This document shows positions 8,032 through 18,735 of a stretch of DNA of 41,333 nucleotides, one piece after another (position 1 is the stretch's first letter; each line of letters begins with the position of its first letter). The notes beneath the pieces are model-generated. The model did no database searches. It was not told where the DNA came from and was given only the letters and a program-made list of their open reading frames with translations. The DNA comes from Candidatus Staskawiczbacteria bacterium RIFOXYB1_FULL_37_44 (GTDB taxonomy: Bacteria; Patescibacteriota; Minisyncoccia; Minisyncoccales; Staskawiczbacteraceae): positions 1-41,333 of the forward strand of contig MHPJ01000010.1 of the NCBI GenBank assembly GCA_001822065.1, given 5' to 3'. The translations under genes and the position numbers were made by a program.

Positions 8032-9243
8032 ATGGAAGACGTAAAAAAATTATTGGGATCGGTGGCAATTTCTCCAAAAATTATTGAAGAAACAGATAAG
8101 GGGGTAAAAGACATTGAAGGATTTAAAAATAAAATAGAAGAATATCTCTCCCAAAACGTTACTGAACTTTTAGATGTTATTTTATATGGAGCAATAGCGC
8201 TTGATACTTCAGACATCCACGTTGAGCCGGAGCAAGAAAAATCAAGACTAAGAATTAGATTGGACGGCATCCTGCAAGATGTTGTTTTTTTTGACCGAAA
8301 TATTTACCGCCATTTAATTTCCAGATTAAAGTTGCTTTCAAAATTAAAATTAAACATTACAGACAAGCCTCAAGACGGCAGGTTTACAATTGGCGTTAAA
8401 GATTTGTTAATTGAAATAAGAACTTCCAGCTTGCCGGCCGAATACGGCGAATCAATTGTAATGAGAATTCTAAATCCAAAAAGCTTGATCAGTTTGGAGG
8501 ACCTTGGCTTGCGCGAAGACTTGTATAAAATTTTTCAGAAAGAAATTGAAAAGCCAAATGGAATGATAATCGTTACCGGCCCCACGGGATCGGGAAAAAC
8601 AACCACGCTTTACGCATTTTTAAAAAAAATACAAAATCCTGAAATTAAAATTATCACAATTGAAGACCCAATTGAATATCATTTGGCGGGAGTTTCGCAA
8701 ACGCAAGTCGCTCCGGAAAAAGGCTATGATTTTTCAGACGGATTAAAAAGCATTGTACGGCAAGATCCCGATGTTATTCTGGTTGGAGAAATAAGGGACT
8801 TGGAAACCGCAAAAATAGCCCTGCAAGCGTCTTTAACCGGGCATCTGGTACTTAGCACTTTGCATACAAATGATGCGGCTGGGACCATCCCAAGGCTTGT
8901 GGACATTGGTACAGACGCTTCGTCAATTGCATCGGGGTTGAAAATGGCAATTGCCCAAAGATTGGTCAGAAAAATCTGCCCAAAATGCAAAGCCAAAAAA
9001 GGCGGCTGCGAATATTGCAATTTTACAGAATATAAAGGCAGAATGGGCTTATACGAAGTTCTCTTGGTTGACGCTGAAATGGAAAAATTTATTTTAACCA
9101 ATCCGCCGGTTTCTGAAATCAAAAAATTAGCCATACAAAAAGGCATGGTCACAATGTACCAATCTGGATTGCTGGCGGTAAAAGAAAAAAAGACAACATT
9201 GCAAGAAGTTAAACGCGTTGTGGAAGAAGACGAATCGCTTTAA
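8032..9243 (+). CDS. GspE/PilB family secretion/pilus ATPase (short N-terminus)
   Basis: SDIHVEP, PQDGRF, GPTGSGKTTTLY, TIEDPIEY, RQDPDVILVGEIRD and LSTLHTN. Confidence 0.95.
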   Translation: MEDVKKLLGSVAISPKIIEETDKGVKDIEGFKNKIEEYLSQNVTELLDVILYGAIALDTSDIHVEPEQEKSRLRIRLDGILQDVVFFDRNIYRHLISRLKLLSKLKLNITDKPQDGRFTIGVKDLLIEIRTSSLPAEYGESIVMRILNPKSLISLEDLGLREDLYKIFQKEIEKPNGMIIVTGPTGSGKTTTLYAFLKKIQNPEIKIITIEDPIEYHLAGVSQTQVAPEKGYDFSDGLKSIVRQDPDVILVGEIRDLETAKIALQASLTGHLVLSTLHTNDAAGTIPRLVDIGTDASSIASGLKMAIAQRLVRKICPKCKAKKGGCEYCNFTEYKGRMGLYEVLLVDAEMEKFILTNPPVSEIKKLAIQKGMVTMYQSGLLAVKEKKTTLQEVKRVVEEDESL

Positions 9244-9244
9244 C

Positions 9245-9403
9245 AAAAAAAACGGCTCTGGGGTTGGAGGTAGTTTTATTGTCTGGGACAATAAGAAAGA
9301 TTTTTTTGAGGAGCGGTCGAGCCGGAGCAAGACCGTCCGAAGCTGAAAAAAATCCAAATAAATACCTCCAACTCCAGAGCCGTTTCCGGTGTATTTTTCA
9401 ATA
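9245..9403 (-). ncRNA. Candidate rod-shaped sRNA of about 160 nt (6S-like architecture, family unassigned)
   Basis: 23-bp inverted repeat 9250-9272/9363-9385, inner stems, 8-bp side hairpin 9276-9294, U8 tail and an upstream consensus promoter. Confidence 0.6.
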
Positions 9404-10445: not shown

Positions 10446-10456
10446 ATCTGGCTGTT

Positions 10457-10549
10457 GTCATTGCGAGGAGGCTCGCAAGCCGACGTGGCAATCTATAACT
10501 CTGGATTGCCACGCTCGTCGCCCAAAGGGCGAACTTCGCTTGCAATGAC
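10457..10549. repeat. REPIN/RPE-like bipartite palindrome, family B (GTCATTGCGAG...GCAATC / GATTGC...GCAATGAC)
   Basis: Terminal inverted repeats; full copies at 15401 and 28878, half copies at 7278 and 23529. Confidence 0.85.
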
Positions 10550-10554
10550 AATGC

Positions 10555-10599
10555 AAAAAAAACGCGCCCCTCATTTCGCTTTCGCGAAATTCGGGGCAC
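10555..10599 (-). terminator. Intrinsic terminator of the 10645-12195 gene
   Basis: GTGCCCC-GA-ATTTCGC-GAAA-GCGAAAT-GA-GGGGCGC followed by U8. Confidence 0.8.
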
Positions 10600-10644
10600 T
10601 TATTGTTTTACTCGCGAGAACTTTGTCCTCGCCTACTTGAACTT

Positions 10645-12195
10645 TCAGCCCATCCCGCCGCCATCGCCGGAGTAAATGCTCCAGCGGGTCTGATCAGCGT
10701 ACTGCTCGAAGATCTTGTCGGTCGCCAGAGCCGAGCCGTCGGGACGCTTGGCGCTGATGCCAGCATCTCCCGAAAGCTGCGCTCGCAAATATCCATACTG
10801 GATATCGTCGCGCGCATCGGCGCGAATCTCAAAGCTGTAAGTATTTCCTACGGGGCTGGTGAGCAAAAGGCCGTCAAAGACAACCTGCTCGTTCACCAAC
10901 TCGCCCGCCACCGAGCCGTCGAAAATGCCGTCGCTGTTGGTGTCCCAGTGCATCACATAATTAGTGAAACTGGACAGATCACCTTGGGTAGCCGTGATAG
11001 CCACATGGGTGATGTACATCAAGCTGGTACTGGAAGCCGTGAAGGCCTCCAAAACCAAATCCGGCGTTCCCGGCTCCACAGTCTGCCAGTTTGGCGAAGC
11101 GGTCGGGATCTCTTTGACCACCAGCTCGTGATCAGCGGACTTAAACGAGAACAGAGTGGCGACGTTGGTGTAAAGCCGAATTTGCGCTCCTGTGGCTGGC
11201 GCCGTGCCATTGACCATAGTGCCCTGCAAGGGCTTACCGGTTTCCGTGTTCACTGCGTTCAGCCCCGACGTATCGAAGGCCAATTGCAGATGGTCAGAAA
11301 CTGGCACGGCAACGATGTCGCCACGCACCTCGTATCGGCCGTCAGGCATGTCTGCATCGGCAAGATTAAAACTGAGCTTGCCGTTGGACACGGTTCCGGC
11401 GCTACAAACACTCACGTCGAAAACATCGTCCCAGTTGGTATCTGCCCACAAAGAGTAAGCCGCATCATCGAGATCACCCTGTTGAGCCGTAAAGCTCATG
11501 GTCTTGGGCTGAACCAATTCGGACTGCCAAGAATAAAACTTCAGCAGGCTGACGCCTTGCTGGTCAATTTCCACAGACCCGTACTTGTCGCCAGATTCTT
11601 GGCTGACGCTCCAGGACTGCGTGTCCATGGGTTGTAAAATGGGATCCACGCCGCCGTACCTGACGTTTTCAAACGGCAGATCCACACCCCGCAAATTGAC
11701 GCCCGAGACCAACGCGATGTCCAACCCAATGTCCTCGCCGGACAAATAAGAGTTAAACTTCGCATAAACCTCGATATGGAGCCCCTTTTTGGACAGCCAC
11801 ACCGGCCTGTAGACGTCTGTGCTAATGACGTCGTAATAGTCCGGCCTCGCGGATGCGAGATTGGCCTCACAGCCATCCTTGGACTTGCCGTTCAAATCGG
11901 CCATCACCACCACTTCGGTGATGTTGTACCGCAGTTCGGCGCTTCCAAAAGCTGGCAAGAAGTCAAACCCCGTGAGCCGAGCGCGATTGCGACCGGTCTT
12001 CAGAGTCATGTCCAACAGCTCCACTTTGGAAGCGCCGGGCAGAACGCCCGAAGCCAACAATGGGATCTTGTTGTTGATCACATCGATGAACGGCATGGGC
12101 GCAGGTCTTAATGTCCCGCTCCCGCCGCCGGCCAGCATTTGCCGAGGCTCCAACGACTCAACGCGCAACTTCCGGCTCGTCAAATTCCTACGCAT
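10645..12195 (-). CDS. GC-rich putative surface/S-layer-like protein with Planctomycete-type LEPRxLL N-terminal motif and three beta-rich repeats
   Basis: SD AAGGAG before ATG 12195; MRRNLTSRKLRVESLEPRQMLAG; repeats containing MADLNG, LWADTNWD and HWDTNSD. Confidence 0.75.
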   Translation of the reverse strand: MRRNLTSRKLRVESLEPRQMLAGGGSGTLRPAPMPFIDVINNKIPLLASGVLPGASKVELLDMTLKTGRNRARLTGFDFLPAFGSAELRYNITEVVVMADLNGKSKDGCEANLASARPDYYDVISTDVYRPVWLSKKGLHIEVYAKFNSYLSGEDIGLDIALVSGVNLRGVDLPFENVRYGGVDPILQPMDTQSWSVSQESGDKYGSVEIDQQGVSLLKFYSWQSELVQPKTMSFTAQQGDLDDAAYSLWADTNWDDVFDVSVCSAGTVSNGKLSFNLADADMPDGRYEVRGDIVAVPVSDHLQLAFDTSGLNAVNTETGKPLQGTMVNGTAPATGAQIRLYTNVATLFSFKSADHELVVKEIPTASPNWQTVEPGTPDLVLEAFTASSTSLMYITHVAITATQGDLSSFTNYVMHWDTNSDGIFDGSVAGELVNEQVVFDGLLLTSPVGNTYSFEIRADARDDIQYGYLRAQLSGDAGISAKRPDGSALATDKIFEQYADQTRWSIYSGDGGGMG

Positions 12196-12258
12196 CACAG
12201 CTCTCCTTAAATCAATGAACACTTTAACAAAAAAGAGGAACCATTCCTCTCTTTATTT

Positions 12259-12287
12259 ATCTTAGCATATTATTAAAACCTTGTCAA
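12259..12287 (-). promoter_or_regulatory. sigma70 promoter
   Basis: TTGACA-17nt-(TGc)TAAGAT followed by AAATAAAG and a leader hairpin. Confidence 0.8.
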
Positions 12288-12380
12288 CTCATTCGGCCTA
12301 CATAAAAAATCGCCTAAAAAGGTGATAAAAGTTTTAACTACAATTAGGGGTATACAAAATTTACGACTATTTTTAGTATG

Positions 12381-12451
12381 AGCGGGTGATGGGAATCGGA
12401 CCCACGTACTTTGATTGGCAACCAAATGCACTACCATTGTGCTACACCCGC
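12381..12451 (-). tRNA. tRNA-Gly(GCC)
   Basis: Cloverleaf GCGGGTG...CACCCGC-U; anticodon arm TTTGG-TTGCCAA-TCAAA. Confidence 0.93.
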
Positions 12452-12459
12452 AGTTCATG

Positions 12460-12531
12460 TGCCGGGGAAAGGAATCGGACCTTCGACCACTGCTTTTTCA
12501 GAGCAGTGCTCTACCACTGAGCTACCCCGGC
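12460..12531 (-). tRNA. tRNA-Phe(GAA)
   Basis: GCCGGGG...CCCCGGC-A; anticodon arm CTGCT-CTGAAAA-AGCAG. Confidence 0.95.
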
Positions 12532-13196
12532 ATATTAATTATGTTTTTATATATACCCTCTGTCCATCCTTTAATCTTCAAAAACAATTTAGTATTGCAT
12601 ACATAAATATCAAAAGTTCCGAAGGGTAAAGAATTTTTTTTGTTTTGGCTACTTATATTATGCTTTGAATATGTTTTATAAAATTGGCTTAACGGAATTT
12701 TAGAAACTGAGGACCAATAATTTTCAGCTTTTTTTATGTTAAGATGTGGGTGAATATGGATATGCCCTCTAAACTTTTTTTCTGGAACATAGCAGATTTT
12801 TCTCAAAAATTCCATCATAATTTCAATTATTTTGGGGTCGCCGTTTGCTATTCTAACTAATCCACGTTGTGTCTTGCCTCCCTCCGCCCAATATAAAGCA
12901 ATTCCTAAAATTTTTAAATCTTGTAAAGATAAATTATTTATCTCTTCTCTTGCTTTATCAATTATTATCTGTCTCCGATTATTTTCATTCTTAAATCTAG
13001 TCGCCCTTCTTTTTTCTATTATTTCCTTTTTAACGCCCTTGTTAGATAATTCTTGTTTTTGATCTTTTGTAAGCTCTATATTTTTTACCCATAAACTGAT
13101 ACTACTTTTGGAAACTCCCAATTCTTTTTTAATTTCGTTCATTGACCAGCCTTGTTTTCTTAAACTGATAGCCAAATTTTTTTCTTTTAGTTTCAT
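12522..13196 (-). CDS. HTH + LAGLIDADG-like protein inside a tRNA cluster
   Basis: N-terminal HTH (GWSMNEIKKELGVSKSSISLW), LGIALYWAEGGK helix and NGDPKIIE; stop codon inside tRNA-Phe. Confidence 0.7.
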   Translation of the reverse strand: MKLKEKNLAISLRKQGWSMNEIKKELGVSKSSISLWVKNIELTKDQKQELSNKGVKKEIIEKRRATRFKNENNRRQIIIDKAREEINNLSLQDLKILGIALYWAEGGKTQRGLVRIANGDPKIIEIMMEFLRKICYVPEKKFRGHIHIHPHLNIKKAENYWSSVSKIPLSQFYKTYSKHNISSQNKKNSLPFGTFDIYVCNTKLFLKIKGWTEGIYKNIINMPG

Positions 13197-17436: not shown

Positions 17437-18735
17437 TCAGCCTCGAGTCTTATTTTTTTCTTGCTTTGCGCGAACCATGCGGAAAACTGTCCGCAAGAAA
17501 TTCTTGCATTGGACAGGTTTCATATCAAGGAAGGCTTCACCGGGATTGTGGAACTGCCCGACTGCTTTGTCGTACAACTTAGCAGCCTTCGGGCTTTTTG
17601 AAACAACTTCCACAAGACCGATATGACCGTCTGACCTGCGCGCGAAGCGCAAAGTTAGATTCTTGATGGTGACTCCCTCATCAGGATTATTTGGTGGAGC
17701 CCATTTAAACTCCTCCTCGCAAATTAAGGTGGCCATGCCGACAGCGCCTTTCAAAAACTCCCACGGCTCAAGCTCTCGGTTTTCCTTCTCGAAAATCGCC
17801 GAGAATCCGCGTTTGAGCGCGGCGCCGAGTTGTTCGGTCTTCCTTTGCCAGTTTTCCAGTTTTTCACCGGACAACTGTGGCGGCGGGATAATCCTAAGTC
17901 CGTCGCAGACTTTTCCGTCGTCAGCCTTAATCGCCGACAACAGAATTGTTGCGTTTCCGAGCTCGGCAAGTCCGTTTTTGTGGCCGGTAATTCCGGTCAC
18001 AATCAGAACTTGCTTGTCGATTCCGTTTAGTTGGCTTTCCAGTTCGAAAGTCGCCTTGTTGTCGATTCCAAGTTGGAACTTTCCGAGTTTTCCAGCCCAA
18101 GCTTCCTGTGGAATGATTTCTTCGTCGGAAGTCCGGGGTTTGGGCGGGGCAGTCACGGTAGCGAGTTTTTCTGCAGACCGTGTTTCCACGGCGTGCAATT
18201 GCTCGCCGCGCAACCTGCCCACAAGCTGCAGAATCTCGGTTTTGTCTTCGGGTTTGAGCCCAAAACCTTCTGCCGTAACTTGAAAGGTTGGCGACAGGTA
18301 TTTCTCCTGTGCCGCCCAGACAAGTATGTCCACTGCTTCTTGCTCATTTATTTCTCGTTTCATTTTGAAACGAATGTTTGCAAGGTGCGCGGCACGCCGG
18401 AGGGCAAACGCCGAATTCTCCATGAGCTTGGCGATGCCGAGCTTGAACCGCGAAATAACGTCGGCCCAGGTAAGCTCCGGAATATCCGAGGGGTTGTCGA
18501 GTCCTGCTTCGATTTTCTCGGTCTCGGCCAGAAACTCGAACACCAGCGGCAGAACGACTGCCAGCAGGTACTCGGCGTGCTCAGCAATTTTGCCGGCGGC
18601 CGCCTGCACAGCCTTGATGGCCTCCATCGCCGAGCGTTTCTTTTCGCTCGGCTCCATACGCGAGGGGTCTTTCTCAATGGCCTCGAGTAGTTCGGTGATG
18701 GACAGTTCAACCTGGGTGTCAATGGTTTTTTCCAT
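17437..18735 (-). CDS. GC-rich hypothetical cytoplasmic protein (432 aa)
   Basis: Long ORF with GC-ending codons, SD GAAGGA, own promoter and terminator; no recognised domain. Confidence 0.75.
   Translation of the reverse strand: MEKTIDTQVELSITELLEAIEKDPSRMEPSEKKRSAMEAIKAVQAAAGKIAEHAEYLLAVVLPLVFEFLAETEKIEAGLDNPSDIPELTWADVISRFKLGIAKLMENSAFALRRAAHLANIRFKMKREINEQEAVDILVWAAQEKYLSPTFQVTAEGFGLKPEDKTEILQLVGRLRGEQLHAVETRSAEKLATVTAPPKPRTSDEEIIPQEAWAGKLGKFQLGIDNKATFELESQLNGIDKQVLIVTGITGHKNGLAELGNATILLSAIKADDGKVCDGLRIIPPPQLSGEKLENWQRKTEQLGAALKRGFSAIFEKENRELEPWEFLKGAVGMATLICEEEFKWAPPNNPDEGVTIKNLTLRFARRSDGHIGLVEVVSKSPKAAKLYDKAVGQFHNPGEAFLDMKPVQCKNFLRTVFRMVRAKQEKNKTRG

Follow-up and report, generated by a model that had tools for sequence, protein, structure and literature searches.

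How does an ultra-small groundwater bacterium of the candidate phyla radiation (CPR) come to carry a GC-rich gene whose product looks extracellular and begins with a motif named for planctomycetes, and does that motif reveal the host of the organism? We addressed this question for a minus-strand gene at positions 10645 to 12195 of a 41,333-nt stretch of contig MHPJ01000010.1 (the window, by which we mean the whole stretch that was analyzed). The window belongs to an 836-kb (0.84-Mb) Patescibacteria genome of the Candidatus Staskawiczbacteria type, called G000 below. We conclude, with a probability of roughly 0.6, that the locus is an accessory gene that was acquired horizontally and encodes an exported surface protein. 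An earlier interpretation made from the letters and their reading frames (the sequence-only reading) had instead proposed a chimera, in which a CPR-like repeat body was joined to a host-type targeting motif. To our knowledge, surface proteins are the main candidates for the attachment of host-dependent CPR bacteria, and almost none of them has been characterized.

A leader-bearing gene in a GC island

The GC content of G000 is 0.370, and its 1-kb windows have a mean of 0.370 and a standard deviation of 0.039. The maximum among these windows, 0.556, is the island that holds the gene, a feature absent from the sequence-only reading, and this value, together with a GC content at third codon positions (GC3) of 0.70, marks the gene as foreign to the CPR genome by composition. 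First and second codon positions have GC contents of 0.55 and 0.43, and GC3 is 0.32-0.36 in the neighboring RuvB and T2SSE genes. The step in GC is sharp at both edges of the island. The GC-rich segment takes in a box and a terminator on the 3' side of the gene and leaves outside it a 185-bp upstream region of 33% GC.

The N-terminal motif that the sequence-only reading had recognized as Planc_extracel is confirmed by a profile hidden Markov model (HMM), as PF07595 matches the 516-aa form of the protein with 29.6 bits (E = 4.9e-7; gathering cut-off, 25.5). In a six-frame search of G000 the gene scores 34.4 bits and is the single match in the genome, and none of 14 control genomes searched in this way has a match above the cut-off. 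The companion assignment to LEPR-XLL did not hold: the protein has no NCBIfam match at E ≤ 10, and the corresponding model (NF012209) matches only 1 of 51 aligned relatives, weakly (E = 0.0019). By a Kyte-Doolittle heuristic applied to 15-residue windows, the highest mean within residues 1-70 is 1.23, compared with 2.3-2.4 in two relatives with a genuine signal peptide, which agrees with the original observation that a classical hydrophobic signal peptide is missing. The motif occupies the extreme N-terminus, ahead of a Gly/Pro linker and three beta-sandwich modules of the kind found in extracellular proteins. The leader residues R, E, E, R, L, A, G, G, and G are identical in all four of the closest copies.

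A report on planctomycetes (PMC8567305) regards the Planc_extracel motif, at the N-terminus of cell-surface proteins of this group, as a putative novel signal for export, a role that stands there as a hypothesis only. The same report credits the consensus RRLxxExLExRxLLA to Studholme et al. 2004, calls the motif abundant in planctomycetes, and counts 52 Tuwongella immobilis genes that carry it by a custom HMM. PMC10952558 also lists Planc_extracel among signal-peptide models.

A double-glycine leader served by a C39-peptidase ABC exporter was considered and rejected. The peptidase family PF03412 is found in none of the three genomes of the genus that carry the gene (G000, G018, and G009) and in 6 of the 23 non-carrier genomes. 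In addition, the hydrophobic residues ahead of the GG presumably fall in a different register from those of a canonical double-glycine leader.

The longest minus-strand frame at the locus spans 10645-12222 and encodes 525 aa from a GTG start. The shorter frame that the sequence-only reading had chosen (10645-12195, 516 aa) is the likely gene because an AAGGAG site at 7 nt and a promoter-like site precede the ATG at 12195. The promoter-like site lies in AT-rich DNA (GC 0.33), about 60 nt upstream of AAGGAG. Database gene calls P0001 and P0007 begin at the later Met of "QMLAGG", and therefore the leader is missing from both. The features of the locus are as follows.

10455..10550, no strand assigned: REP/MITE-like repeat of G000 itself (resembling repetitive extragenic palindromes or miniature inverted-repeat transposable elements), left border of the island
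10555..10632, minus strand: conserved GC-rich 3' box with hairpin (10614-10632) and intrinsic terminator (hairpin 10564-10599 plus T8)
10645..12195, minus strand: coding sequence, 516 aa plus stop; GC 0.56, GC3 0.70
10648..10662, minus strand: C-terminal tail GGGMG, a family signature
10666..11133, minus strand: module 3, residues 355-510, predicted cohesin-like beta-sandwich with a D-T-N-S-D-G-I-F-D loop (AlphaFold2, hhalign)
11140..11613, minus strand: module 2, residues 195-352, predicted beta-sandwich with a W-A-D-T-N-W-D-D loop (AlphaFold2, hhalign)
11620..12099, minus strand: module 1, residues 33-192, predicted beta-sandwich (AlphaFold2)
12124..12180, minus strand: Planc_extracel leader motif, residues 6-24, TSRKLRVESLEPRQMLAGG (PF07595 HMM above cut-off)
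12203..12208, minus strand: Shine-Dalgarno site AAGGAG, 7 nt from the ATG at 12195, read from the sequence
12234..12250, no strand assigned (reported on the plus strand): 7-bp hairpin with a T-run after it, separating the promoter-like site from the ribosome-binding site
12259..12287, minus strand: sigma-70-type promoter-like site, TTGACA-17-TAAGAT with TG before the -10 element, 10/12 consensus matches
12380..12531, minus strand: tRNA-Gly(GCC) and tRNA-Phe(GAA), right border of the island

The terminator region has a minimum free energy of -42.4 kcal/mol (z = -5.4), and 0 of 200 shuffled sequences folded equally well. The hairpin at 12234..12250 could lie in the 5' untranslated region or could terminate transcription of the upstream tRNA genes.

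AlphaFold2 supplied with 51 sequences gave a confident model (pLDDT 93.4, pTM 0.85) of three tandem all-beta modules, the last five residues being floppy and residues 1-30 being unstructured and of low confidence (pLDDT 54-59). This model was used for the fold searches; an earlier model from 4 sequences was poor (pLDDT 55) and was not used. Modules 2 and 3 are homologous (hhalign probability 95.5%, E = 1.4e-8, 30% identity over 92 columns), and module 1 has no significant sequence similarity to either of them (hhalign, 0.1-0.2%). Thus, the three repeats of roughly 130 aa in the sequence-only reading correspond to three beta modules, two of which are true repeats, but the modules measure about 155-160 aa and the first is not similar to the others in sequence.

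By structure, module 1 resembles sialidase N-terminal domains (6mnj, Z 11.1, rmsd 3.0, 135 residues aligned; 8gn6, Z 10.6) and also the cohesin 2vo8 (Z 8.3), and module 3 resembles cohesins (6kgc, Z 8.4; 4uyp, Z 8.3; 3ul4, Z 8.0) and pilin domains. In Foldseek, the best-ranked hits (E = 7e-12 to 1e-7) come from integrin alpha legs, the Ig-like domains of PrgB, and the C-terminal domains of antigen I/II. The modeled architecture is generic for extracellular binding or stalk proteins and nothing more specific, which suits the earlier description of the protein as surface-like. The DxNxDG-type loops of modules 2 and 3 (WADTNWDD and WDTNSDGIFD) are probably calcium sites, by analogy with dockerin and FG-GAP loops. 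Pfam cohesin models do not match the protein. PF20009 (GEVED) reaches 17.4 bits (E = 0.0078; residues 256-301 of the 525-aa form), below its cut-off of 24.4 bits, and matches 2 of 51 relatives at E ≤ 0.01. Matches in the ESM Atlas (feature scores of at most 0.85; TM 0.26-0.46 by query and 0.25-0.59 by target row) are unnamed clusters, some from CPR phyla, and serve as leads only.

A word-indexed protein search returned 4 proteins, the query's own among them, and an exhaustive profile search of 1.84 billion representatives returned 236 relatives at E ≤ 1e-3 and 43 at E ≤ 1e-30. Our family counts come from 51 aligned members, some of which are fragments. The leader core E-x-L-E-x-R-x-x-L-A precedes the same body in 42 of them, PF07595 matches 21 at E ≤ 0.01, and 29 end in a glycine tail of the G-x-G type, mostly GGG(L/M)G. 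Furthermore, the leader and body of the gene are uniformly GC-rich. The architecture is therefore older than its arrival in G000, and the proposal of a CPR body fused to a host-type motif finds no support. Leader, body, and tail instead form one ancestral architecture of a sizeable, uncharacterized family. Literature found under the motif names held nothing on CPR, so we know of no description of this family; Table S9 of PMC8567305, which covers motif proteins, might list related bodies.

Seven of the 51 members (P0009, P0010, P0011, P0013, P0015, P0026, and P0153) also carry a helix, LLAQIAxLQAQL. It stands just after the leader in three members and just before the GGGLG-type tail in four, as if the termini were interchangeable, and this placement hints that both ends may act together.

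We propose that the locus is a cassette, composed of an AT-rich promoter, a Shine-Dalgarno site, a GC-rich open reading frame (ORF), and a GC-rich terminator, set between a REP-like repeat and tRNA-Gly. The disordered Planc_extracel-type leader would act as a non-classical export signal and be cleaved near LLA/GGG. Three cohesin- or Ig-like modules would then be displayed outside the cell for binding or scaffolding, with the DxNxDG-type loops of modules 2 and 3 holding calcium. For example, they might tether the ultra-small, host-dependent cell to a matrix or to another cell that serves as its partner. We know of no study of a Planc_extracel-type leader outside planctomycetes, and the confidently modeled protein offers a clonable test case for this leader as a portable export signal.

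Distribution in the genus and length of residence

Full-length copies are present in 3 of the 26 genomes of the genus, three further genomes have weak single-domain matches only (about 4e-6), and none of the 16 other families of the order has the gene family. The three copies fall in three supported clades of a quick tree (SH-aLRT, the approximate likelihood-ratio support, 99-100) and occupy three loci: between RuvB and tRNA-Gly in G000, between lysS and PBP in G018, and, in G009, at yet another position. The locus occupied in G018 is an empty site in G000, whose lysS-PBP spacer measures 469 bp compared with 1,942 bp with the island. The locus thus combines deviating GC, a patchy distribution, and an empty site, as expected of a horizontally acquired island, with borders that are not bridged by contigs. 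Gene-sized GC islands in AT-rich contigs, beside ordinary CPR genes, recur in L002 (GC 0.58-0.61 versus about 0.36 around it), G018 (GC 0.58, GC3 0.77), and G009 (GC 0.58, GC3 0.74), and the DNA upstream of the family copy in L003 is AT-rich.

The empty lysS-PBP spacer of G000 holds a copy of the REP-like element (C19:19976-20032). The region G000:C19:19969-20437 also contains a promoter-like TTGACG...TATGCCATAAT as well as GC-rich DNA that seems structured and ends in a terminator-like hairpin; it may encode a small RNA.

The copy in L002 is 57% identical to that in the window and lies on the same side of T2SSE-RuvB, in the same orientation, with two extra genes between. RuvB and T2SSE of the two records are 83% and 72% identical. 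By the Nei-Gojobori method (NG86), the two gene copies differ by dN 0.337 and dS 1.25 (dN/dS about 0.27), and the gene is under purifying selection. Synonymous divergence of the flanking genes is similar (RuvB, 1.34; T2SSE, 1.16).

Regulatory sequences are also shared. The layout TTGACA-N17-TGCTAAnAT is found upstream of the L002 and L003 copies as well. The 3' flank, which comprises a TAGGCGAGGACAAAGTTCTCGCGAG box, a GC-rich terminator hairpin, and a T-run, is conserved in L002, in L003, and partly in G009 (positions L002 11537-11640, L003 1700-1779, and L008 about 9200-9314), between copies with only 46-57% protein identity. The hairpin is recognizably similar even next to the distant G009 copy.

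These observations bring forward the rival that survives best, although we consider it unlikely: a resident CPR family, inherited vertically since before G000 and L002 split, whose GC-rich codons were kept by selection or a GC-favoring process and whose patchiness arose by loss. The matching dS of island and flanks, the common side and orientation relative to T2SSE-RuvB, and the common promoter layout and 3' box and terminator all favor it. So does the finding that every copy with visible DNA context (the window, L002, G018, G009, and upstream in L003) lies in AT-rich, CPR-like DNA, and so do about 20 other GC-rich 1-kb regions across G000. Such a history fits poorly, however, with a family confined to three genomes of the genus, in three clades and at three loci, with the empty site of G000, and with its absence both from the other families of the order and, as a full-length copy, from 400 sampled genomes of the phylum. 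We also know of no mechanism that would hold GC3 at 0.7-0.78 in a genome with GC3 0.33. Finally, NG86 values of dS of 1.2-1.3 are unreliable because they are near saturation, which counts against the residence argument.

Among the GC-rich ORFs of G000, 14 were scanned. Four have a Pfam match (a purC/E fusion, purL, Fib_succ_major, and a sub-threshold Band_7) and 10 have none. The window itself holds a second GC-rich ORF (17437-18735, minus strand; 432 aa, GC 0.53, GC3 0.59) with no Pfam family.

A broader proposal is speculative, and we hold it with low confidence. The cassette family might circulate among ultra-small Patescibacteria and keep its foreign GC-rich codons over long residence, with the leader and the GGG(L/M)G tail serving as the handle of an undescribed export or attachment route in wall-less-outer-membrane CPR and planctomycetes.

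Source of the gene and its physical linkage

A family profile applied to 400 evenly drawn genomes of the phylum matched 11 of 11 genomes in one GC-rich Patescibacteria family (f34, probably Peribacteraceae) and 0 of 389 elsewhere. These matches (E = 1e-18 to 6e-28) cover modules 2 and 3 alone, within frames of 756-1511 aa. The description of the body as a CPR-like repeat body is accordingly well founded, since its module 2/3 domain occurs throughout f34, in some frames with SLH-like N-termini. By eye, several long frames have a classical signal peptide and an SLH-like segment at the start and a YP(D/E)..V..ST.Y domain at the end.

A scan of named genomes listed 80 loci, 70 of which have Peregrinibacteria or Peribacter-type titles; one full-length match is titled Candidatus Staskawiczbacteria. 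None of the 80 listed loci has a Planctomycete title, and the scan saw only matches to its seed patterns. A named-genome scan with the four closest sequences, likewise limited by seed patterns, gave 244 pattern matches of which 0 were confirmed, and a scan of viral contigs gave 119 pattern matches, also with 0 confirmed.

In the class of G042, whose record is titled Peribacteria, relatives with both the leader and module 1 were present in 5 of the 151 genomes sampled, G042 itself included. Peribacteria-type examples with the leader, L018, L128 ("RVLRLEGLENRQLLS"), and L129, reside in GC-rich genomes and have no GC contrast to their flanks. PF07595 matches 2 of 401 Patescibacteria genomes at E ≤ 0.001, counting G000, and exceeds its cut-off in 0 of 5 Peribacteria-type records. 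We tentatively regard a GC-rich CPR lineage of the Peribacterales type as somewhat favored as the donor. A donor in Planctomycetota or another PVC lineage is distinctly less probable, and a donor of some other kind is a little less so again.

The only other genome with a PF07595 match among the 400 sampled, G379, belongs to a different Patescibacteria family (GC about 0.47) and has two matching ORFs (L138 and L139), which start MFESLEDRRLLAA... and MEPLERRDLLAG... On a 5.5-kb contig (L015) in a record titled as a Flavobacterium metagenome-assembled genome, a uracil-DNA glycosylase gene comes after a family member that has the leader. This contig is probably mis-binned because its gene order matches that of the Peribacteria-titled L018.

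The sequence-only reading is best judged against these data. It held that the motif is of a Planctomycete host type, that the gene was taken from the host or the motif fused to a CPR body for mimicry or export by host machinery, and that the motif would mark the host. The motif does pass a Pfam model built on planctomycete proteins; it is abundant in that group, as the 52 Tuwongella genes in PMC8567305 indicate, and rare in Patescibacteria. A repeated acquisition into one genus would also fit a stable physical association with the donor. The GC content of the gene, 0.56-0.60, is compatible with many Planctomycetota. Even so, we consider this explanation quite improbable. The relatives with the leader on the same body and the uniform composition leave no chimera, the titles in the scan are of Peregrinibacteria or Peribacter type, and none of the listed loci offers a full-length Planctomycete ortholog, within the limits of the seed patterns. 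Moreover, the body domain is present in every sampled genome of f34, leader-bearing relatives are native to GC-rich genomes of the class of G042, and we found no evidence that bears on the use of host machinery for export. Because the tag came together with the body, as a single family, it does not reveal the host. The motif is not a Planctomycete marker, yet it is uncommon in CPR. Because motif and body occur in Patescibacteria, the Pfam name is not taxonomic, and a host deduced from it would mislead. Literature on the hosts of Staskawiczbacteria held nothing relevant.

Sequence of the window, in whole or in part, was found in 16 sequencing runs, 12 of which contain half or more of its words. 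In all four runs examined, the island forms a Logan contig of its own (10511-12408), whose start lies within a high-depth repeat and whose end lies 29 nt into tRNA-Gly. The repeat is modular and internally palindromic, lies downstream of RuvB, and has a depth of 150-425x compared with 9-27x for the flanks; 44 partial copies (20-58 nt, 88-100% identity) are found on 16 other contigs of G000. The island contig includes about 40 nt of this repeat and the 185-bp AT-rich upstream region.

An assembly or binning artefact, in which a GC-rich foreign fragment was joined through the REP-like element and the conserved tRNA-Gly, could draw on the island always being its own contig, on the missing bridging pieces, and on uneven depth, but it is very improbable given that the island contig holds part of the repeat family of G000 and 185 bp with a CPR-style promoter and Shine-Dalgarno site, that precise GC islands recur beside different neighbors in three further records (L002, G018, and G009), that the RuvB neighborhood is common to L002, and that GC bias or strain-level presence and absence could produce the depth differences.

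Several points nevertheless weigh against horizontal acquisition of a gene for an exported surface protein. No listed Logan contig from the four runs bridges either border of the island, both joins cross repeated sequence, and the ratio of island depth to flank depth ranges between about 0.5 (X5) and about 2.0 (X10), which reads as strain-level presence and absence or GC bias; the physical linkage therefore rests on indirect arguments. Among the 16 runs that contain the window or part of it, none is an RNA run. The Z scores of 8-11 for modules 1 and 3 are those of generic beta-sandwiches and imply no function, no known machinery for the leader was found, and no neighboring gene is conserved across the four loci.

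In addition, the equal dS and common promoter and terminator fit long residence and sit badly with unameliorated composition, as GC3 is still 0.70 in the window and 0.78 in L002. According to our own arithmetic with a two-rate amelioration model, most of the GC3 excess should vanish after such synonymous change. Selection that holds the composition, separate arrivals in the same neighborhood, and a misleading, near-saturated dS are alternative ways out. A GC island that has kept its composition while diverging seemingly in step with its flanks is a puzzle for models of amelioration in reduced genomes.

Next to the right border of the island, a 224-aa ORF containing a helix-turn-helix (HTH) motif (12522-13196, minus strand; GC about 0.29) lies between the tRNA pairs Gly/Phe and Val/Leu. 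Its Pfam matches are weak and limited to HTH_3 and HTH_23.

Comparison with known systems

Fibrillar adhesin and pilin stalks (PrgB 8beg, antigen I/II C123 3qe5, BcpA 3kpt, and the integrin alpha thigh and calf 3ije) share with the protein a string of Ig-like beta-sandwiches. However, global TM reaches no more than 0.17-0.21, at rmsd values above 20 Å, so the resemblance is limited to single domains, and the protein lacks the LPXTG sorting signal and anchor domain of adhesin stalks. The cohesins of cellulosomal scaffoldins and the N-terminal domains of sialidases (BNR_assoc_N type) have a fold class in common with modules 3 and 1, respectively, and all are tandem extracellular modules that bind proteins or glycans. 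They differ from the modules here in that there is no Pfam sequence match, identity is 9-12%, and no dockerin partner is known; moreover, Z scores of 8-11 are commonplace in this kind of structure search.

The SLH-type proteins of about 1,400 aa from Peribacteria- and Peregrinibacteria-titled genomes (frames in L017, L022, L026, and L028) share the module 2/3 domain, at 23-31% identity by tblastn, and are extracellular as judged by eye from a signal peptide and an SLH-like N-terminus. Unlike the protein in the window, they begin with a classical hydrophobic signal peptide, reach about three times its length, and end in the YP(D/E)..V..ST.Y domain rather than GGGLG, and they lie in GC-rich genomes without compositional contrast.

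The planctomycete extracellular motif proteins (PF07595) are alike in having the N-terminal motif without a hydrophobic signal peptide, followed by beta domains of extracellular type. The protein described here departs from them in its organism, a Patescibacteria with a 0.84-Mb genome, and in the conserved GG(G) and proline-rich linker that follow the leader. Its body likewise sets it apart, as it represents an undescribed three-module family that ends in GGG(L/M)G.

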